Shown: positions 3,026-53,607 of the stretch, piece after piece | Numbering within the stretch: the first letter of the stretch is position 1 | How the letters are laid out: every line of letters starts with the position of its first letter | Assembly (NCBI GenBank): GCA_007376385.1 | Contig: VMGC01000002.1 | Location: forward strand, 64,001-128,000 | Source: Parcubacteria group bacterium Gr01-1014_8 | GTDB taxonomy: Bacteria; Patescibacteriota; Minisyncoccia; Phycocordibacterales; UBA2100 | Direction: 5' to 3' | Length of the DNA: 64,000 nt | Notes under the pieces: model-generated | The model's database searches: none | Told to the model about the DNA's origin: nothing | What the model saw: only the letters and a program-made list of their open reading frames with translations | Program-made: the position numbers and the translations under genes

Positions 3026-3050
3026 ATGTCCGAGGTTCGACCTCGGACAT
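3026..3050. repeat. REP-like 25-nt palindromic hairpin atgtccgagg-ttcga-cctcggacat (left flank of the RAYT gene)
   Basis: 10-bp stem with 5-nt loop. It is the exact reverse complement of the element at 3736-3760. Confidence 0.8.
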
Positions 3051-3057
3051 GTTGTGC

Positions 3058-3735
3058 TTAATCGGTATTAAGCTTGTATGCAAGCCACTCATTTATGTGC
3101 TTTTTGAATTCGGAAGGTGTTGAGAAATATTCCGGCATCGCTTTAGCGTCAATCAGCTTATTTTCAGGACGTTCCACTCCCGAAAAATCGAGATAGCTTG
3201 AATAAGGATACCTTTCTAGAGATTTTAAATTCGCGAGAGCAGACAAAGTCTCCTTTTCAAACGTCTTCGTAAGTGCGACTGGATTCAGATGCACGTACGC
3301 TATGAGGTATTTGAGATACCGATCATCTTTTGCATGAACGGCTTTGAATTTTCCTTGAAGGAGTGCTCCGTTGCGTTCATGTCGTTTGTTGAAATACATC
3401 GTATAGCCTGTTATGACTTTCTGCATGAATTTACTTATCCCGCCCACGCCAATTTCTCGGAGTATCAGGTGAAAATGATTTGGCATGAGGCAATACGCCG
3501 CGACGTCCACAAGTGGAGAGCCACGCGGCAGTTCCAAAGCTTCACGCAGTGAGTATCTACTTAGCCGTTCATCGAGCCGTTCTTCCTGGTTGCAGGAATA
3601 AAGGAGGGTTAGGAACCGCTCATAGTCACCGCGTGAGCTAAAAATCGAGCGCTTCTCGGTTCCCCGATTGTAGACATGATATATCTCATCGCTTGCGAAC
3701 TCTATTTGCCGTGTCACCCGGTGATTATAAAACAA
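3058..3735 (-). CDS. REP-associated tyrosine transposase (RAYT) / IS200-IS605 TnpA-like HUH Y1 transposase
   Basis: 'CLMPNHFHLIL' HuH motif and a C-terminal 'YLIAYVHLNP' tyrosine region. Flanked immediately on both sides by inverted REP hairpins. Confidence 0.8.
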   Translation of the reverse strand: MFYNHRVTRQIEFASDEIYHVYNRGTEKRSIFSSRGDYERFLTLLYSCNQEERLDERLSRYSLREALELPRGSPLVDVAAYCLMPNHFHLILREIGVGGISKFMQKVITGYTMYFNKRHERNGALLQGKFKAVHAKDDRYLKYLIAYVHLNPVALTKTFEKETLSALANLKSLERYPYSSYLDFSGVERPENKLIDAKAMPEYFSTPSEFKKHINEWLAYKLNTD

Positions 3736-3760
3736 ATGTCCGAGGTCGAACCTCGGACAT
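3736..3760. repeat. REP-like 25-nt hairpin atgtccgagg-tcgaa-cctcggacat (right flank of RAYT; inverted copy of 3026-3050)
   Basis: Seen directly. Starts 1 nt upstream of the RAYT start codon. Confidence 0.8.
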
Positions 3761-3774
3761 TGTGGATAAAATAG

Positions 3775-10743: not shown

Positions 10744-12042
10744 ATGACCAAACTTTCATTTTTTCAGATAGTCGTACTCTCATCCTTCGGTGCTCTCGCG
10801 ATCGCGGGCGTAATGATATTTGCGTTCGTGGTCGGCGGCTCCGGAGGCGAGGGCATAGGAGAAGTGAAAATTTGGGGCACGCTGGACGCTGGCGCATTTG
10901 CAACGATACTCCGTCAGCTTGCGGAAGAGGACACTCGCATGAAAGCTGTAACGTATACCCAGAAAGATCAATCAACCTTCGATCGGGATGTGACCAATGC
11001 GCTCGCGTCCGGTGCGGGGCCTGACCTGTTCGTTCTCCGCAGTGATTTCGCAGAAAAGGAGGCAGCGAAGGTGTCGGCAATACCGTATGCGCTATTTTCG
11101 GAAGAACAATTTCAAAATACGTTCATCGAAGCGGCGAACGTATACATGGGTCCGGAAGGAGTGCGCGCCGTTCCGCTTGTTGTGGACCCGCTCGTACTCT
11201 ACTGGAATCGCGACATGCTGGCCTCATCGGGCTTTGCGAAACCGCCCGTGTTTTGGGACGAGTTGTTCGACATGGCGACAAAAATGACCAAAAAAGACGA
11301 TACGAATTCCATCATAAAGAGTACCATCGCGCTCGGTGAACATCAGAACGTGGATCATGCGAAAGAGATACTCTCGCTTCTCATCATGCAAGCTCAAGGC
11401 CGCATCACGCAAAGAGATGGTACGGGGAAATTGCAGACGGCGCTTGTGGCGCGCGCAGGAGATGTACAGCAGCCGACAGAATCGGCGCTCCGGTACTACA
11501 CTGAATTTGCGAACCCTATCAAAGCGCACTACACATGGAATCGCGCACTTCGAGAGAGCCGTTCAGCGTTCGCATCGGGAGATCTCGCACTTTATATAGG
11601 CCTCGCAAGCGAGGAGCCGTTGGTACGCCGCATCAATCCGAATTTGAACTTCGCTATTGCGCCAGTGCCGCAGATACGGGGCGGTGCTCGGAGCTTGAAT
11701 GTGGGACACGTATACGCATTTGCCGTACCAAAAGCGGCCAAGAATCTGCAAGGCGCTCTCACGGTTGCCTATACTCTTGCATCAATGGATACGTCAAAAC
11801 TATTCTCTAAGGCTCTTGGCATGCCTTCTGCAAGGAGAGATGTTCTTGCGGAGCCTGCGACGGGCAATGATGATCTTTTCAACAAGCAAGCCATCCTTGC
11901 GAGAGCGTGGGTAGACCCGGACCCGGAAAAAACTGATGTTATATTTAGAGACATGATACAGAGTGTCACCAGCGGCTCTGCGCGTCTCGGCGAAGCGATA
12001 CAGAGGGCGGATAAGACGATGAGCGACCTTCTCAGCATATGA
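10744..12042 (+). CDS. ABC transporter extracellular solute-binding protein (family 1)
   Basis: N-terminal TM/signal segment; SBP_bac_1-like body. No permease gene adjacent. Confidence 0.55.
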   Translation: MTKLSFFQIVVLSSFGALAIAGVMIFAFVVGGSGGEGIGEVKIWGTLDAGAFATILRQLAEEDTRMKAVTYTQKDQSTFDRDVTNALASGAGPDLFVLRSDFAEKEAAKVSAIPYALFSEEQFQNTFIEAANVYMGPEGVRAVPLVVDPLVLYWNRDMLASSGFAKPPVFWDELFDMATKMTKKDDTNSIIKSTIALGEHQNVDHAKEILSLLIMQAQGRITQRDGTGKLQTALVARAGDVQQPTESALRYYTEFANPIKAHYTWNRALRESRSAFASGDLALYIGLASEEPLVRRINPNLNFAIAPVPQIRGGARSLNVGHVYAFAVPKAAKNLQGALTVAYTLASMDTSKLFSKALGMPSARRDVLAEPATGNDDLFNKQAILARAWVDPDPEKTDVIFRDMIQSVTSGSARLGEAIQRADKTMSDLLSI

Positions 12043-12141
12043 CCCCATGAGAGAAATACTTTCGATATACCTATGAACATGATTGAACAGATCTACATGT
12101 GGGAGACAACAAAACATTCAAGCAGTCTCTCTCACGGGGTA
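12043..12141. repeat. Inverted-repeat pair unit U0, variant form: ACCCCATGAGAGA ... 71 bp ... TCTCTCACGGGGTA
   Basis: Right arm ends at the ATG of pilin gene 1 (12141). Confidence 0.55.
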
Positions 12142-12488
12142 TGACGAACATCAGACGAGTACTGAGGATCGCACACTGGACATTTTTCTTCGTGCTGCTG
12201 CCGTCCTTGGTTATGGCGCAAACGCTGCAAAATCCGACGCAGTTTCCGACCATTCAGCGTTTTATTGAAGGCGTACTGAAGGCGGTCGTATACATTGCGA
12301 TGCCTATCATTGCGCTTTTTATGGTGTATGCCGGGTTCCTTTTTGTTAAGGCGCGCGGAAATTCTGGAGAACTCGAGAATGCCAAGAAAAATTTTGTGTA
12401 CGTCATTATTGGCGCAATTCTCATCCTCGGCGCATGGGTATTTGCAACGCTTATCGGCGGAACCGTCAGTCAGCTCGTCGGCTCATAG
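12141..12488 (+). CDS. TrbC/VirB2-like pilin-type small membrane protein, paralog 1
   Basis: Signal peptide ..LLPSLVMA|QTL, two hydrophobic helices, conserved 'IIGAILILGAWVF..L' segment shared by all paralogs. Confidence 0.6.
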   Translation: MTNIRRVLRIAHWTFFFVLLPSLVMAQTLQNPTQFPTIQRFIEGVLKAVVYIAMPIIALFMVYAGFLFVKARGNSGELENAKKNFVYVIIGAILILGAWVFATLIGGTVSQLVGS

Positions 12489-12489
12489 C

Positions 12490-12795
12490 ATGACTACATT
12501 TAGACGCATTGGATATCTGATTCTCATCCTCGGCGCGCCGCTCGTCGTCGCGGCAGCGCCTCGCACCTATAGGGAACTTGTCGAATACCTCATTAAAATA
12601 ATGAATTACACGATAGGTACGTTGATAGTTCTTGGGCTGGTGACGTATTTTTACGGCGTTGCGCACAATATAATAAGATCTAAAGAAGGCGATTCAGGCC
12701 AGCAGAGGAGTTTTATTTTGATGGGTGTCGTCGTGATATTCGTCATGGTGTCGGTGTGGGGAATACTTCGTCTCCTTAGAACGACGTTCTTCTAG
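12490..12795 (+). CDS. TrbC/VirB2-like pilin-type small membrane protein, paralog 2
   Basis: Starts 2 nt after paralog 1. Contains 'ILMGVVVIFVMVSVWGILRLL'. Confidence 0.6.
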   Translation: MTTFRRIGYLILILGAPLVVAAAPRTYRELVEYLIKIMNYTIGTLIVLGLVTYFYGVAHNIIRSKEGDSGQQRSFILMGVVVIFVMVSVWGILRLLRTTFF

Positions 12796-12803
12796 TTTGA
12801 AAT

Positions 12804-13118
12804 ATGCGCGCGATCCGGGAACAGAGGAGACAATGCTTTGCCGGGGCTTCCGCCGTCATTTTCGGGATGGTCTCGCTTCCTTTTTTAGCGAACGCCCTCA
12901 CGCTCGCAGAAATGCGCGATGCGGCCGTACCCTTTCTGTATGGGATCATTGGTTTTTTCGGGGCGCTTGCATTCGGCATTTTTGGGGCAGGTCTTGTTGT
13001 TTATCTGGTTCGTATGAGTTTGGATAATCGTATGTATGGTATCGATATCATGATATGGGGGGTTACCATCCTTTTTGTCGTTGTCCTTCTCATCGGGCTT
13101 CTGGTGTGGATACAATAA
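12804..13118 (+). CDS. TrbC/VirB2-like pilin-type small membrane protein, paralog 3
   Basis: 'IMIWGVTILFVVVLLIGLLVW'. Confidence 0.55.
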   Translation: MRAIREQRRQCFAGASAVIFGMVSLPFLANALTLAEMRDAAVPFLYGIIGFFGALAFGIFGAGLVVYLVRMSLDNRMYGIDIMIWGVTILFVVVLLIGLLVWIQ

Positions 13119-13199
13119 GTGATTAGAAGGGGGGTTATTATGGCTGGAGGGCGAAATCGCGCGGGCCGCAGGCTTGCATGATCCACGAGCGAAGACGCA

Positions 13200-13420
13200 A
13201 AATCACGTATTCGTGCACGCCCATGAACCAATTTTGGTTTTTGACAACCAGATCTAGCGCGTAAGAAATGTAAAGGTGTATGCCATGTCAGCGAACCCGA
13301 GGCGTATTCGAAACGATCGGCCGAACCAAAATTTGGTGCTGGGTTATCCACACAGAACCGACCTTGGCGCCTTTTTGCGCTATCAGGGGGATACAATAAG
13401 ACTACTTACTGGCGACGTAA
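13200..13420 (+). pseudogene. Possible remnant of a deleted pilin paralog: a duplicate of the pilin-4 leader followed by a 12-nt match to the pilin-3 3' end (ggatacaataag), with no pilin body
   Basis: 13215-13350 aligns to 13530-13665 (gcccatgaaccaaYtttgg ... ggccRaaccaaaRtttggtgcKgggttatc). Confidence 0.35.
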
Positions 13421-13436
13421 GGCGAGAGAAACGACA

Positions 13437-13478
13437 GTGTAACTCACTTTCGTTTCCGAGCCGAGGAGCCAGCAAAAA
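13437..13478 (+). repeat. Conserved ~40-nt element, copy 2 (gtgtaactcactttcgtttCCGAGCCGAGGAGCCAGcaaaaa)
   Basis: See copies at 1729 and 50171. Confidence 0.6.
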
Positions 13479-13529
13479 TATTTTTTTACCAAGTCAACTT
13501 ATTGATATTTACTATGAGCGCACGACCTG

Positions 13530-13663
13530 CCCATGAACCAACTTTGGCCTCCAACAACGGTCATCGTGTAGGGAAAGAAAGTTTGAAATATGCCTTGTCA
13601 GCGTACGCTGGGGTGTCGCGAAATTTCTTGGCTAGGCCAAAGTTTGGTGCGGGGTTATCGACT
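13530..13663 (+). promoter_or_regulatory. Structured 5' leader of pilin gene 4: inverted repeats aaccaactttggcc / ggccaaagtttgg separated by ~76 nt
   Basis: Inverted repeat seen directly. The same architecture is present in the duplicate at 13215-13350. Confidence 0.4.
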
Positions 13664-14011
13664 ATGTGGGTGCTGATAGCGGGCACTTTTCTTTTGCCTG
13701 CACTCGTCTCTGCCCAGACTCTCCTGAACACGCTCGCGCTCGTCAATACGTTCCTCAACGCGCTCATCGGTCTTTTCATTACCCTTGCCATCGTCGCGTT
13801 CTTCTGGGGACTCATCAAGTACTTGGTCAATATGGGTTCCGAGAATGCGAAAGAAGGCATTCAGATAATGCTCTGGGGCATCATCGCAATTTTCGTCATG
13901 GTCTCCATTTGGGGAATCATCCGGTTGCTCCAAGCTACGTTCCGTGTCACATCAACTGACCCGGTCATTCCAAAAGGTATTCAGATCAACACTGGAGGGG
14001 GAAACTTTTAA
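13664..14011 (+). CDS. TrbC/VirB2-like pilin-type small membrane protein, paralog 4
   Basis: MWVLIAGTFLLPALVSA|QTL signal peptide; 'IMLWGIIAIFVMVSIWGIIRLL'. Confidence 0.6.
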   Translation: MWVLIAGTFLLPALVSAQTLLNTLALVNTFLNALIGLFITLAIVAFFWGLIKYLVNMGSENAKEGIQIMLWGIIAIFVMVSIWGIIRLLQATFRVTSTDPVIPKGIQINTGGGNF

Positions 14012-14074: not shown

Positions 14075-14377
14075 ATGGAAGCTGGAATGATGGTGCTGCA
14101 GAGGTTCAAGGAATATATCCTTGACCCGACTATTTATCTTATCCTGACAGCAGGACTCCTTTTGTTTATTTACGGTCTTGTGCTCTTTATCTACAAGATG
14201 CGAGAGGGCAGCGACTATAAGGAGGGCCTGTCGCACATGCTCTGGGGCATAATCGGCATGTTTATTATGGTATCCGTGTACGGCATTATCGCGCTCATCA
14301 TAAACACGATCGGCGCTGACCCGACTCAACCTGATCTAAGCAGGATACCTGAAGCAAATCCCGGATTCTTTAAGTAA
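14075..14377 (+). CDS. TrbC/VirB2-like pilin-type small membrane protein, paralog 5
   Basis: 'HMLWGIIGMFIMVSVYGIIALI'. Confidence 0.55.
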   Translation: MEAGMMVLQRFKEYILDPTIYLILTAGLLLFIYGLVLFIYKMREGSDYKEGLSHMLWGIIGMFIMVSVYGIIALIINTIGADPTQPDLSRIPEANPGFFK

Positions 14378-20352: not shown

Positions 20353-20452
20353 TACCCCATGAGATAAAAAACTCATAGCCCAGTGATATAGGGTATTTGT
20401 CAAATCAAAATTCGTCGCGCAAAAAGTGTCAAGCGATCTATCTCACGGGGTA
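20353..20452. repeat. Inverted-repeat pair unit U1: TACCCCATGAGATA ... 72 bp ... TATCTCACGGGGTA, in the divergent infB / cysteine-desulfurase intergenic region
   Basis: Seen directly. The left arm is 35 nt upstream of the infB ATG. Confidence 0.65.
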
Positions 20453-20533
20453 TACGCCCAAAAGTCAAAATTTGAAAGTCAGCGGCGCGTGCAGTCACTT
20501 CCGAAATTAAGTATTTAAGCCTAGAATCACGGC

Positions 20534-21862: not shown

Positions 21863-21960
21863 ACCCCGTGAGATAAAGTCATTCGGTGTATGTGGAGGTG
21901 ATGTTGCTTGGTGACTAATATCGAACGCGGCTCATAACTTTTCGCCATATCTCATGGGGT
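21863..21960. repeat. Inverted-repeat pair unit U2 (TACCCCGTGAGATA ... 72 bp ... TATCTCATGGGGT)
   Basis: Directly abuts U3. The junction reads atctcatggggtCTaccccgtgagat, itself a 12-bp palindrome. Confidence 0.65.
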
Positions 21961-21962
21961 CT

Positions 21963-22066
21963 ACCCCGTGAGATAACTGTTCGTCTTTTGTTTCGAATTG
22001 TAGTTCATGTATCCATAGTACAATGTCGGTAATGAGACATCTATACACCTCCTATCTCATGGGGTA
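21963..22066. repeat. Inverted-repeat pair unit U3 (TACCCCGTGAGATA ... 76 bp ... TATCTCATGGGGTA), 16 nt upstream of the 22083 gene
   Basis: Seen directly. Confidence 0.65.
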
Positions 22067-22082
22067 TATATAGAAGAAAGCT

Positions 22083-46210: not shown

Positions 46211-46274
46211 TACCCCGTGAGATAAACAGGTCTGACCTTCAACAGGAAAGCGGATGTGCATATCTCATGGGGTA
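46211..46274. repeat. Inverted-repeat pair unit U5 (TACCCCGTGAGATA ... 36 bp ... TATCTCATGGGGTA), half-length spacer, in the divergent dprA / serS intergenic region
   Basis: Seen directly. 16 nt from the dprA ATG and 32 nt from the serS ATG. Confidence 0.65.
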
Positions 46275-46306
46275 TGCCGTTATTTCCGGCGCTTCCCTTT
46301 AGACCT

Positions 46307-47578
46307 ATGCTTGACATCAAATTCATCCGAGAAAACAAAGATATTGTTGCGGCAGGCGCGCGGAAGAAGCATATAGATGTCGATATAGACAGACTTCTTC
46401 AGCTTGACGATAAACGCAGAGAGCTTCAACAGGCGCTGGAAGCTAAGAGGGCCGAGCAGAACAATGCATCAAATGCGATAGCAGGCGCAAAAAATGATAG
46501 AGAGCGGCAGGAGCTTATTGCTCGAATGCAGCAAGTCAAAGAGACGATGAAAATGGAAGAAACATCACTTGAGGAAATATTAAAAGAATGGCGAGCCTTG
46601 ATGGTGCGGGTTCCGAACGTTCCGGATATCTCAGTCCCTGATGGTGACAGCGATGCGGATAATAAGGAAGTAAAGAAGTGGGGAGAGGCAGCTGAATTTG
46701 AGTTTGAGCTGAAAAATCATTCCGAATTGATGTTGATGCATGACATGGCCGATCTTGAGCGAGGCGCAAAAGTTGCAGGCTTCAGGGGATATTTCTTGAA
46801 AAACGATGGGGCACGATTGGTGTGGGCCTTAGAAAGATTCGTACAAGATAGATTCATGAACCGCGAGGGGTTTGTTCCTGTCGTTGTTCCTTCCATGGTT
46901 CGTCGAGAGCCTTTTATCGGCACCGGATATTTGCCCCAGAGCGAAGAGGATCTGTATAAAACGCAAGATGGTGACTATCTTGCGGGTACCGCGGAAGTTG
47001 CCGCTATGGGATATTACATGGACGAAATAGTTGATAAAAGATTGCTGCCGATAAAATTCTTTGCATTCTCTCCGTGTTTTCGCCGTGAAGCGGGGAGTCA
47101 CGGCAAAGACACGAAAGGACTCTTTCGGATCCATGAGTTCGTGAAATACGAGCAGGTAGTCTTATGCGAGGCGAATCATGAAGAATCCGTGCGTCACCAC
47201 GAGGAGTTAACGGCGAATTCGGAAGCTCTCCTGCAGGAATTGAAATTGCCGTATCGCGTTGTGCTGAACTGCGGGGGGGACATAGGTCTCGGGCAAGTAA
47301 AAAAGTACGACATCGAAGCATGGATGCCGTCGGAGAAAAAATATCGCGAGACGCATTCATCATCGTATTTTCATGATTTCCAATCTCGGCGATTGAATAT
47401 TCGTTATCGAGATGATGACGGGACGCTTAAATTCGTCCATTCTTTGAATAACACAGCGCTCGCGATGCCGCGCATCCTCTGCCAAATAGTCGAGAACAAC
47501 CAACACTCTGACGGTTCAATATCAATTCCGGAGGTGCTCCGGGGCTACGTGGGAAAAGATGTGATATCCAAGCACTAA
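46307..47578 (+). CDS. serS: Seryl-tRNA synthetase
   Basis: N-terminal coiled-coil 'MLDIKFIRENKD', class II motifs ('FRREAGS', 'GTGYLP'). Confidence 0.9.
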   Translation: MLDIKFIRENKDIVAAGARKKHIDVDIDRLLQLDDKRRELQQALEAKRAEQNNASNAIAGAKNDRERQELIARMQQVKETMKMEETSLEEILKEWRALMVRVPNVPDISVPDGDSDADNKEVKKWGEAAEFEFELKNHSELMLMHDMADLERGAKVAGFRGYFLKNDGARLVWALERFVQDRFMNREGFVPVVVPSMVRREPFIGTGYLPQSEEDLYKTQDGDYLAGTAEVAAMGYYMDEIVDKRLLPIKFFAFSPCFRREAGSHGKDTKGLFRIHEFVKYEQVVLCEANHEESVRHHEELTANSEALLQELKLPYRVVLNCGGDIGLGQVKKYDIEAWMPSEKKYRETHSSSYFHDFQSRRLNIRYRDDDGTLKFVHSLNNTALAMPRILCQIVENNQHSDGSISIPEVLRGYVGKDVISKH

Positions 47579-47676
47579 TTTTGCCATTTTATTCGCTGAA
47601 CGATCCGGTTGCGAATGTGGCGGGTTTATAAAGGGAGACGTTATATAGAGAAAATAACCGGACACATATAGAAGCC

Positions 47677-48564
47677 ATGGCAAAATTTAGTGGGGGACCA
47701 TTACGTCGACTAAGCGTTCGTAGAAATTTGCCAACAGCAATACGCAGACGGCCTGTCTCCGGTCAGCTTGCGCTGGCGTTCCGGCCAAGGGAGAGGCTCG
47801 CCAGGCGCAGGCGCCGTGCGCGACTGCGCCTGGCGTTCATAGTGTTCTTATCGATCGCAGGTCTTGGGTGGGGAGCAGGGTTCCTTTCTTATAACGATAG
47901 ATTGACAATTCAAGACATACAGATATCTGGTACATCGGCACTATCGACGCGAGTGGTACAAGCCGCTTTCGAAGCGAATTTATACGATGGAGCGTACCAT
48001 TTTCTCTCTCGTGAAAATATTTTTCTGTACCCAAAGGGAACGTTAGCCGCAGAACTGAAAGAAGAGTTGCCACGCCTTAAAAGTGTTTCAATATCACGCG
48101 AGTCACTTCTTGCGCAGGCGGTTAAAGTGACCGTCGAAGAAAGGGGTGCGCAGTATGTGTGGTGCAATAGTGAGAGCTGTTACGTGATGGATTCTGACGG
48201 GTTTATCTTTGCTCCAGTCGATAATGCCACCACCGAATATACGTTTAGAGGCGGTTTGGCGGGAAATTCCTCGCCAGTCGGGCAGACATTTCTCCGCGGG
48301 AGGTTAAATAACATTGTGGAACTCTTTAAACGTCTCGATGAAGCAGGTTACAAAGCGACCGGAGCAACCGTGGAGAACGAGAAGGATTACCGCGTTCTGC
48401 TCGGAAAGGGATTTTCATTGAAAGTGACCTTTGATTCCGAACCGCACGAGGTAGTCCGAAATTTAGAGTTGATTCTTGATTCCGATGCGATTAAGGATGA
48501 CCTTGAAAAACTCGACTATGTGGATTTACGGTTCGGCAATCGCGTATACTACCAGCTACGATAG
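47677..48564 (+). CDS. FtsQ/DivIB-like cell division protein (TM anchor + POTRA)
   Basis: Arg-rich N-terminus, one TM segment, then 'IQDIQISGTSALSTRVVQAAF' POTRA-like start. No ftsA/ftsZ adjacent. Confidence 0.45.
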   Translation: MAKFSGGPLRRLSVRRNLPTAIRRRPVSGQLALAFRPRERLARRRRRARLRLAFIVFLSIAGLGWGAGFLSYNDRLTIQDIQISGTSALSTRVVQAAFEANLYDGAYHFLSRENIFLYPKGTLAAELKEELPRLKSVSISRESLLAQAVKVTVEERGAQYVWCNSESCYVMDSDGFIFAPVDNATTEYTFRGGLAGNSSPVGQTFLRGRLNNIVELFKRLDEAGYKATGATVENEKDYRVLLGKGFSLKVTFDSEPHEVVRNLELILDSDAIKDDLEKLDYVDLRFGNRVYYQLR

Positions 48565-49125: not shown

Positions 49126-50160
49126 TTGCTCGTCTCTCGTGTTATCGTGCGCAAAATGAAAAACTTCTGGGACACATTGCCGCGCCCTTTTTTCATACAG
49201 GCGCCGATGGAGGATGTGACGGACGCCGCTTTTCGGCGTCTCATCGCACGTTATGGCAAACCGGATGTGATGTTCACAGAGTTCACTTCAGCGGATGGTC
49301 TCGTTCTTGCACCACCTTCAGGACAGAAGATACTGCGGAAAAAGTTGGCGTTTGATGAGAGCGAGAGGCCTGTTGTTGCGCAATTATTTAGCGCGATGCC
49401 GGAGCGTATGGAAAAAGCTGCGGAATTGATAACCGAACTCGGATTCGACGGACTCGATATAAATATGGGTTGTCCAGTGGATGAGGTCGTGAAAAGCGGG
49501 GCAGGGGCCGCACTCATCAACGACCACGAGCTTGCGAGAGAGTTGGTTCGCGCGGCTGACCGAGGGCTCCGATCCGCCGGCCGGCGGATGCCTATCTCGA
49601 TAAAAACACGGATCGGGTATCGCGAAAATGAGCTTGCGTCGTGGCTGCCCGTTCTTTTAGAAGTGGAACCGGCGATGGTGGCAATTCATGCTCGAACTCG
49701 AAACGAAATGTCTGCAGTGCCTGCCAGATGGGACACGGTGAAGGAGGCAGTTCATATTCGAGACCGGCTCGGCTCGAAGACTTTTATTGTCGGCAACGGT
49801 GACGTACGGGATATTTCTCACGCGCGGGAACGCATAAAAGAAAGCGGCGCCGATGGTGTGATGCTCGGGCGAGCTATTTACGGAAATCCTTGGTTGTATT
49901 CAGGCCGGACGGATGCACCGTCCCCGAAAGAGCGCATCAACGCGCTCCTTGAACACCTCTCACTATTCGAAGAATTGATGCAGGGGACAACGAACTATGC
50001 GACCATGAAAAAGCATTTCAAGGCGTACATTTCTGGCTGGCCTGCCTGCCGCGACGAGCACGGCGCAGGCAGGGACGGCGCGAAAGATCTGCGGGTGAGG
50101 CTTATGGAGACGGAAGCGATATCGCAAGCAAGAGAAATTCTTACTGGCGACGTAGAGTGA
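49126..50160 (+). CDS. tRNA-dihydrouridine synthase (Dus family)
   Basis: 'PFFIQAPMEDVTDAAFRRL', 'DINMGCPVDEVVKSGAGAAL'. Confidence 0.8.
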   Translation: MLVSRVIVRKMKNFWDTLPRPFFIQAPMEDVTDAAFRRLIARYGKPDVMFTEFTSADGLVLAPPSGQKILRKKLAFDESERPVVAQLFSAMPERMEKAAELITELGFDGLDINMGCPVDEVVKSGAGAALINDHELARELVRAADRGLRSAGRRMPISIKTRIGYRENELASWLPVLLEVEPAMVAIHARTRNEMSAVPARWDTVKEAVHIRDRLGSKTFIVGNGDVRDISHARERIKESGADGVMLGRAIYGNPWLYSGRTDAPSPKERINALLEHLSLFEELMQGTTNYATMKKHFKAYISGWPACRDEHGAGRDGAKDLRVRLMETEAISQAREILTGDVE

Positions 50161-50164
50161 GAGC

Positions 50165-50188
50165 AGAGAACATGTACTCATGTTCTCT
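50165..50188 (+). terminator. Perfect 10-bp-stem hairpin agagaacatg-tact-catgttctct, 5 nt after the dus stop; forms the 5' part of conserved-element copy 3
   Basis: Seen directly. Followed by a pyrimidine-rich tract. Confidence 0.5.
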
Positions 50189-50210
50189 TCCGAGCCGAGG
50201 AGTCAGAAAC
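50171..50210 (+). repeat. Conserved ~40-nt element, copy 3 (catgtactcatgttctcTTCCGAGCCGAGGAGTCAGaaac)
   Basis: See 1729 and 13437. Confidence 0.6.
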
Positions 50211-50232
50211 TAGAGCCAGTTTACCAGTGATA

Positions 50233-50332
50233 TACCCCGTGAGATATAAACCTGTATGTCGCACTCTCGGCGCTCAATTTTGAGAAGATGTGACGCTATA
50301 GGCGGATAGAGCCGGACTATCTCATGGGGTAT
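50233..50332. repeat. Inverted-repeat pair unit U6 (TACCCCGTGAGATA ... 72 bp ... TATCTCATGGGGTA), 9 nt upstream of the dnaX ATG
   Basis: Seen directly. There is no divergent gene on the left side. Confidence 0.65.
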
Positions 50333-50341
50333 ACTCCTTCC

Positions 50342-53358: not shown

Positions 53359-53607
53359 ATGTTGCCTATTTTGGTTCCTCGGCTCGGAATTGAAAATGAA
53401 TACACTTTCACTTCACTCGCAACGCTCGCCAATAAATATATGGAAAAGATAAAAATTGAACATCACACACTATCAGGAGGTCTCTGGATAGGGGCGTGGC
53501 TGTTCACGATCGGTTTTTTGCACCTAACATTTTGGAAAGGTGTTCTCGCCGTCGTGATATGGCCGTACTACCTCGGTGTTGCATTCGGCGGCTGGGTCCA
53601 CATATGA
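53359..53607 (+). CDS. Small hypothetical membrane protein
   Basis: Two TM segments; immediately upstream of nirK. Confidence 0.3.
   Translation: MLPILVPRLGIENEYTFTSLATLANKYMEKIKIEHHTLSGGLWIGAWLFTIGFLHLTFWKGVLAVVIWPYYLGVAFGGWVHI

Follow-up and report, generated by a model that had tools for sequence, protein, structure and literature searches.

Two copies of a palindromic hairpin element at a pilin-like locus of Parcubacteria group bacterium Gr01-1014_8 probably represent insertions of a small non-coding mobile repeat

In this study, we analysed a 64-kb stretch of the genome of Parcubacteria group bacterium Gr01-1014_8, a tiny bacterium of groundwater (contig VMGC01000002.1, positions 64,001 to 128,000; hereafter the window, whose coordinates are used throughout), focusing on two copies, A and B, of a small hairpin element in an array of pilin-like genes. 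The array comprises five small paralogous membrane-protein genes (12141-12488, 12490-12795, 12804-13118, pilin 4, which ends at 14011, and 14075-14377), three of which show similarity to T4SS_pilin (PF18895)/TrbC, and lies 3′ of a gene for a solute-binding protein (10744-12042) that is 100% identical to a Parcubacteria group bacterium Gr01-1014_8 protein. Both copies of the element are held in a gap of 545 bp before an ATG at 13664. Loci of relatives, labelled L002, L006 and L013-L017, were fetched via homologues of the solute-binding protein and of pilin 4; the closest relative is L014, whose pilin 4 is 97% identical in protein and 88% in DNA. A further locus, L009, belongs to a Minisyncoccia metagenome-assembled genome and is unrelated to the pilin locus. 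A covariance model of the element, R1, was built from four copies. The features that bear on the element are as follows.

12804..13118, + strand: pilin-like gene 3, the 5′ neighbour, from the open reading frame (ORF) list; orthologues are present in relatives
13216..13343, + strand: hairpin element copy A, with a length of 128 nt (CACGCCCATGAACCAATTTTGG ... CCAAAATTTGGTGCTGGG), within the spacer that separates pilin 3 from pilin 4; boundaries from the empty site in L014; 132 bits with R1; same-site copies in L006 and L013
13344..13352, + strand: TTATCCACA, a conserved spacer motif directly 3′ of copy A; found exactly once, on the + strand, in the spacer of each of the seven relatives
13514..13525, + strand: ATGAGCGCACGA, the ancestral pilin 4 start, encoding MSAR; the same 11-12 nt occur in L013-L017, and proteins P0123, P0125 and P0127 start with MSAR
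13514..14011, + strand: pilin 4 (T4SS_pilin-like) ORF including the insertion, 165 aa, or 115 aa from the internal ATG at 13664; from the ORF list, with a PF18895 match
13526..13654, + strand: hairpin element copy B, with a length of 129 nt (43 codons), lying in frame and free of stops behind codon 4 of pilin 4; empty sites in L014 and L017; 153 bits with R1
13655..13663, + strand: TTATCGACT, host sequence that follows copy B directly on the 3′ side and encodes L-S-T in the signal peptide; uninterrupted in L014

A first-pass annotation of the window, made by a model from the letters alone, had described a structured leader of pilin 4 and a near copy of it upstream. This duplication is real, and both copies lie essentially where they had been placed: over ~140 nt, 13219-13355 and 13529-13663 share 74% identity, and at both ends they have long blocks without any difference. 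The blocks common to the two stretches are GCCCATGAACCAA, TTTGG, TATGCC, TGTCAGCG, TTTGGTGC and GGGTTATC; three conserved blocks each occur at these two places alone in the 64 kb, against a chance expectation of 0-0.2 matches. A and B themselves are 68% identical, and B is 74% identical to a copy in another genome; between-copy identity is 59-74% overall and ~100% at the ends. Within one spacer region, A and B follow each other in direct orientation at a distance of 310 bp, and the sequence lying between them is not duplicated. R1 recovers the copy in L013 at 89 bits. The genome was searched over ~74 kb (the window plus ~10 kb of flanking sequence from identical re-assemblies), and R1 found no further firm copy in the window, in the extra flank or in the relatives' loci. 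The number of firm copies is two in the ~74 kb of this genome and five in all data reached.

A weak, diverged candidate relative was seen at 47560-47711 (21 bits, E about 7e-4; unconfirmed). It has the same stem-bulge-stem layout with different arm sequences, its stem, bulge and outer stem lying at matching places and its arm changes being compensatory; the serS stop codon falls within the 5′ arm, and the start of an FtsQ-like gene, its ATG with the first codons (MAKFSGG), within the 3′ arm. A 14-nt exact identity, AGTTTGAAATATGC, between the interior of copy B (13580-13593) and 12794-12807, which spans the pilin 3 start codon, is probably due to chance.

The ends of the element are nearly invariant (5′ CCTGCCCATGAACCAACTTTGG, 3′ CCAAAGTTTGGTGCGGGG) and enclose a freely variable interior of ~80 nt. 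The element starts with CCTGCCC and finishes with GCGGGG; its termini read CCTGCCCATGAACC... at the left and ...GGTGCGGGG at the right, and joined ends would read ...GGTGCGGGG/CCTGCCCATG.... The two ends pair with each other over 18 bp in total, made up of an outer stem of 3-4 bp and an inner one of 14 bp, which carries a single bulged T, with a small internal loop between them. The inverted repeats are as the first-pass annotation described them, and the long-range pairing that it noted is conserved. In an alignment of five confident copies and one weak copy from four genomes, a small sample fitted to the model, the terminal stem of 18 pairs shows 99% pairing, with two-sided changes in six pairs, a result that none of 500 shuffles attains. 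The T..A versus C..G difference between the inverted repeats of A and B is compensatory. As the stem pairs inside the element are all Watson-Crick save for one wobble in one copy, either strand could be the one that folds, and RNA, single-stranded DNA or a protein that reads both ends could be the partner. The predicted fold of copy B has an energy of -45.7 kcal/mol, the fold z-scores are unremarkable (0.03 to -1.8), and in a longer fold both candidate start codons of pilin 4 lie within or beside paired regions. Local hairpins at the ends were, by inspection, inconsistent between copies. An Rfam search of the whole window at the gathering threshold returned tRNAs only, and a search of the region at E<=10 gave no family match for the element and one meaningless ctRNA hit of 15 bits.

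The element is non-coding and has no conserved reading frame. From copy to copy, the conserved blocks fall in different reading frames, most of which contain stops. No protein among 5.8 billion shared three 5-residue words with the end peptides, and the 44 aa encoded by B had no hit among 1.84 billion representative proteins. Coding of the 3′ block on the minus strand (VDNPAPNFG, with only synonymous differences between A and B) was considered and rejected, given that the internal block of B is in another frame, that stops are frequent and that there are no protein homologues.

The precise boundaries of A and B could be defined because both sites are empty in L014. With a slash marking the point occupied by the element in the window, L014 reads ...ATATTTGCG/TTATCCACA at the copy A site (...TTTGCG/TTATCCACA; longer, ...GCATATTTGCG/TTATCCACATAG) and ATGAGCGCACGA/TTATCGACTATGTGG at the copy B site (ATGAGCGCACGA/TTATCGACTATG; longer, ATGAGCGCACGA/TTATCGACTATGTGGATG), and L017 is also uninterrupted at the B site (CGATTATCGA). 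The A site is filled in the window, L006 and L013 and unfilled in L002, L014, L015 and L017, while L016 keeps no more of the element than its last 8 nt, GTGCGGGG, ahead of TTATCCACAC; G-rich remnants precede TTATCCACA in L016, L002 and L017. The element is missing from the B position in six of the seven relatives and from the A position in five. The filled B site reads CGA/element/TTATCG and the empty one CGA/TTATCG, with no base repeated; the B boundaries lack flanking microhomology, and removal of B restores the ancestral codons exactly. These results show a precise insertion without target-site duplication, unambiguously at B. Elsewhere in the spacer, at ~13134-13172, the window has an extra ~38 nt after the pilin 3 stop relative to L014. 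These start with GGGGTTATTATGG, a sequence reminiscent of the GGGGTTAT junction that the element copies have at their 3′ end.

Copy B had been placed upstream of pilin 4 in the first-pass annotation, a position that has to be revised. The pilin 4 orthologues P0123, P0125 and P0127 are ~120 aa long and start with MSAR, and the DNA of this start (ATGAGCGCACG) is kept in L013-L017. Given these orthologues, the true start of pilin 4 is the ATG at 13514 and copy B lies within the ancestral coding sequence, as a derived insertion. Gene callers gave the 165-aa form in one assembly and the 115-aa form in another; the annotation of pilin 4 is here corrected to the MSAR start. Copy B separates the charged N-region of the signal peptide from its hydrophobic core; the uninterrupted form of this peptide is MSAR-LSTMW..LPALVSAQ. 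The insertion would add 43 residues to the N-region, with basic residues (ARPK) kept just before the hydrophobic core. The mature protein shares 97% identity with its L014 counterpart, and the pilin 4 gene is accordingly taken to be intact. Copy B would be tolerated because it is in frame and stop-free and merely lengthens the N-terminal part of a cleavable signal peptide, and the internal ATG at 13664 could serve as an alternative start. The probability that B would be in frame and open by chance is roughly 1/3 x 0.11. This state suggests a selective filter but falls short of proof, since translation could also start at ATG 13664. The locus offers a natural experiment, an in-frame hit on a cleavable signal peptide in which a selfish element would have struck a conserved gene without killing it. 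At the same codon-4 site, L013 carries a different insert of 81 nt (L013 420-500, protein P0122) that is in frame, stop-free and hairpin-forming and has TTAT at both sides; the data examined yielded no further copy of this insert. Taken from these sequences, the codon-4 site at TTATCG would be an insertion hot spot, as the two different inserts point to.

Wider scans yielded one further locus. A scan of GTDB (one genome per species) with a pattern of the 3′ block gave one true extra copy, that of L009, and three chance hits. The L009 copy has the same 22-nt and 18-nt ends around an unrelated interior. Its neighbours are an RNase H gene on one side and a membrane-protein gene on the other, to both of which it is antisense, and the sequence after it is TTATGCAA. 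As this true copy is at an unrelated locus, the element is not tied to pilin genes. A scan of JGI metagenomes produced a single match, a chance one inside an acyltransferase gene; it and the other GTDB matches lie in coding regions of unrelated organisms. No element match was found in viral contigs (three scans), plasmids or phages. The element is found in Kaiserbacteria/Paceibacteria-type bacteria of the candidate phyla radiation (CPR).

Taking these results together, A and B probably arose when a single kind of mobile element, small (126-133 nt), palindromic and non-coding, inserted twice, so that the fallback offered in the first-pass annotation, another small inverted-repeat unit, was essentially right. 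The three independent insertions all lie directly 5′ of TTAT(C/G), at TTATCCACA, TTATCGACT and TTATGCAAT, or, on the minus strand, 3′ of (G/C)ATAA. The lack of duplication together with (G/C)ATAA at a fixed side makes the HUH/Y1 chemistry of IS200/IS605 the closest reaction type. The element is probably a non-autonomous hairpin element that is mobilised in trans, by an enzyme encoded elsewhere, and moved as single-stranded DNA; our confidence in the enzyme is low, a single-strand 'peel and paste' reaction of the HUH/Y1 type being the best guess for an insertion that is sequence-specific and makes no duplication. It would be selfish DNA, any regulatory effect, such as that of a hairpin in the mRNA, being a by-product. 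Several observations weigh against this interpretation. Active mobile families are usually more numerous than the firm copies counted here, and A and B, with their 68% identity, are not recent duplicates of each other. That B is in frame and open would be no more than mildly improbable by chance. Some of the absences at the A site may be imprecise deletions, as remnants such as GTGCGGGG in L016 would indicate, and not sites that were never occupied or were precisely excised. Target specificity is drawn from three sites only. We found neither an autonomous element nor a transposase that carries these ends, and the sole Y1-type gene in reach (3067-3717, - strand, RAYT-like) is flanked by different hairpins; beyond it, the window genes checked include no integrase and no further transposase.

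The spacer between pilin 3 and pilin 4 bears on one of the other explanations, and two more of its features have to be introduced.

13389..13400, + strand: GGATACAATAAG, a -10-like box (TACAAT 13392-13397), the orthologue of GCTAGAATGAAT in relatives; the TTATCC-to-CTTAC spacing is 66 nt in the window and in L013, with 16 of 24 positions identical
13410..13472, + strand: a second, unrelated hairpin repeat of 63 nt, TGGCGACG...GGAGCCAG (TGGCGACGTA...CCGAGCCGAGGAGCCAG), after CTTAC; further copies at 50145-50206, 1703-1763 and L013 310-371

In every relative the spacer has the same order, namely TTATCCACA, about 48 nt, GCTAGAAT (a -10-like hexamer), CTTAC and the MSAR start. The motif TTATCCACA is identical to the DnaA-box consensus and may be a regulatory site for pilin 4; copy A directly abuts it. 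The promoter and terminator scan gave nothing above shuffled expectation, and neither GC skew nor the DnaA-box count indicated a replication origin in the window.

We weighed four other explanations. According to the first-pass annotation, one member of the pilin array had lost its body by internal deletion and kept its leader; such a sixth member would have kept its last 12 nt as well. Copy A is indeed a leader-like sequence without a gene behind it, and 13389-13400 is, as had been noted, identical to the 3′ end of pilin 3 (13108-13119) over 12 nt (GGATACAATAAG). However, this 12-mer is a local promoter-like box rather than a pilin 3 tail, because it aligns at identical spacing with the conserved GCTAGAATGAAT box of the relatives, to which eight of its 12 positions are identical by descent, leaving four further matches to the pilin 3 tail; chance-shared exact 12-14-mers are moreover common in this 6-kb region. 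Comparison of 13119-13513 with the five pilins by tblastn gave only short matches of 20 bits or less, and a Pfam search of the ORFs in this interval gave no hit, so there is no pilin-like coding remnant. All seven relatives have the same spacer without an extra gene, so that the synteny comparison proposed for 13200-13500 revealed no intact paralogue, and L014 has neither copy of the element and a clean empty site. A deleted paralogue is thus contradicted by the data, and we consider it scarcely credible. The other proposal made there, a cis-regulatory RNA leader or expression switch, would have the long-range helix control the transcription, translation or stability of pilin 4, or the choice of pilin. 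By its position B is transcribed with pilin 4, its fold is strong, the stem covaries, and the start codons lie in or beside paired regions in the longer fold. Against this, the element is absent from most pilin 4 leaders and from upstream of the other four paralogues; it is present at an unrelated locus in the orientation opposite to the flanking genes; its z-scores are ordinary and it matches no Rfam family; and B interrupts the ancestral coding sequence instead of preceding it. The distribution of the element already largely refutes this explanation, which we regard as very improbable.

A local duplication without transposition, in which B arose from A by segmental duplication or gene conversion and the 'empty' sites of the relatives are deletions, would account for two copies in direct orientation within one spacer region and for the G-rich remnants before TTATCCACA in three relatives. 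Yet B is closer to the copy in another genome than to A, B lacks flanking microhomology and its removal restores the codons exactly, the sequence between the copies is not duplicated, and the L009 copy lies in an unrelated locus; a local origin of B is accordingly highly unlikely. The element might also be a folded single-strand recombination site, similar to integron attC or CTX-attP, at which a tyrosine recombinase inserts small circles between G or A and TT. Its outer stem, unpaired spacer, extrahelical base, variable terminal loop, length of 126-133 nt and conservation of structure over sequence resemble attC sites, and the element ends in G, is followed by TT and makes no duplication. Nevertheless, the insert begins with CCTGCCC and not with TT as would a cassette cut between G and TT, its ends form no RYYYAAC/GTTRRRY core sites, there is no array of ORFs and attC sites, and no integrase gene is found among the window genes checked. 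The integron version of this idea was rejected on the junction sequence and the absent integrase, and we give the idea as a whole very little credence. Insertion of a small mobile palindromic element remains the explanation that we prefer.

Small palindromic mobile repeats are already known, and the present family mixes features that no single described family shows, yet it is rare. Members of the IS200/IS605 family make no duplication and insert 3′ of a fixed tetra- or pentanucleotide (PMC7290912). The palindrome-associated transposable elements (PATEs) of this family resemble our element in having no target-site duplication, precise filled and empty sites and a fixed adjacent motif of 4-5 nt, and in being small, non-coding and hairpin-dependent. 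They differ in having a separate hairpin at each end and no complementary termini, whereas our element has one long-range terminal stem, and no cognate TnpA sharing the ends of the element lies within reach. Classical bacterial MITEs (transposable elements of miniature size with inverted repeats) make a target-site duplication. We know of no parent insertion sequence with the ends of our element, and neither such a parent nor many copies were seen in the ~74 kb. Classical MITEs such as Correia/NEMIS, ERIC and RUP can sit in mRNAs, where the hairpin is perhaps processed (PMC10969869). Like our element, whose ends pair over 18 bp, they are about 100-150 nt long, have complementary ends that fold into a long hairpin and are intergenic or co-transcribed; unlike them, our element made no duplication at B, which argues against a MITE of the DDE type.

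The Rickettsia palindromic elements (RPEs) are palindromic repeats of ~130-150 bp that insert in frame into protein-coding genes without destroying them (PMC10969869), much as copy B adds 43 in-frame codons. RPEs are, however, mostly intragenic and encode a conserved peptide, whereas only one of the five copies of our element is intragenic, the frames differ and contain stops, and the peptide has no homologue. REP/REPIN-RAYT systems (repetitive extragenic palindromic sequences with their associated tyrosine transposases) also consist of short palindromic repeats, and this genome encodes a RAYT-like Y1 protein flanked by hairpins; those hairpins (ATGTCCGAGG..CCTCGGACAT) are, however, unrelated to the element, which has no GTAG or CGTC end tag and has one intragenic copy. 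Integron attC sites share with the element a folded hairpin in which a spacer is left unpaired, one base is extrahelical and the loop varies, the lack of duplication and the TT that follows, but the left junction and the core sites misfit, and neither a cassette array nor, among the window genes checked, an integrase is present. With complementary ends, no target duplication and a TTAT-adjacent target, the element fits no described family cleanly, and this mix of features could reflect an unfamiliar chemistry of transposition or a Y1 substrate of an unusual kind. In the searchable literature, no description of small mobile palindromic repeats in CPR bacteria was found. On our interpretation, even streamlined Patescibacteria genomes of ~1 Mb would carry small mobile repeats that are polymorphic between close relatives, and such repeats could be used as strain markers and be a source of assembly breaks in CPR metagenomes.

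The three target sites TTATCCACA, TTATCGACT and TTATGCAAT match TTATNCACA at 9/9, 7/9 and 7/9 positions, respectively, so that the 129-nt family seems, from these matches, to prefer DnaA-box-like targets; TTATCSAC occurs seven times where 3.9 are expected, a difference without significance. In different strains, the same 400-bp region holds at least three hairpin families that are unrelated to each other and lie at TTAC/TTAT sites, namely the element of 129 nt, the TGGCGACG element of 63 nt and the L013 insert of 81 nt. A broader idea would be that the ultra-small genomes of CPR bacteria host an undescribed class of hairpin-only mobile elements, guided by sequence to TTAY-type sites without target duplication and driven by resident RAYT-like Y1 proteins or another enzyme. 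We put this forward as speculation that we think is rather unlikely to hold. If true, insertions, including in-frame ones, would remodel the leader peptide of a conserved pilin.

The RAYT-like Y1 gene (PF01797-type; 3067-3717, - strand) is bracketed by near-identical, perfect 25-nt hairpins at 3026-3050 and 3736-3760, the only two copies in the window. A second perfect TTATCCACA (3761-3769, minus strand) abuts the RAYT hairpin. A link between the element and the Y1/RAYT gene through this site was considered and dismissed as coincidence, given that the orthologous locus in L002 has TCCCCA and that the hairpins are unrelated. L002, L006 and a further locus, L007, have a second RAYT-like gene between gyrA and a methyltransferase gene, where the window has a gene for a 205-aa membrane protein; in L002 this second gene is flanked by a repeat of its own, TATTTGGACTTCGTAAGTCCAAATA.

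The 63-nt hairpin repeat corresponds to what the first-pass annotation had correctly noticed after the 12-mer as a conserved 40-nt element. The repeat is missing at the same spot in L014, L006 and L002. Its family shows compensatory stem changes, lies right after CTTAC (three copies) or TTAT (one copy) and has no Rfam match; a partial match of 14 nt was seen at 53376-53389. Judged by these sequences, it looks like an element of the REP/PATE type with an IS608-like TTAC target.

The 'TACCCC family', to which the first-pass annotation had likened the leader, corresponds to the motif ATCTCAYGGGGTAT, found at 12126-12142, 20437-20453, 21946-21965, 22051-22070, 46259-46278, 50232-50246 (inverted) and 50316-50335. 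The motif is unrelated in sequence to the 129-nt element. Several of its copies stand directly before start codons (pilin 1, serS and a DNA polymerase III subunit gene), which suggests that it is a promoter or translation-start signal and not a mobile repeat.

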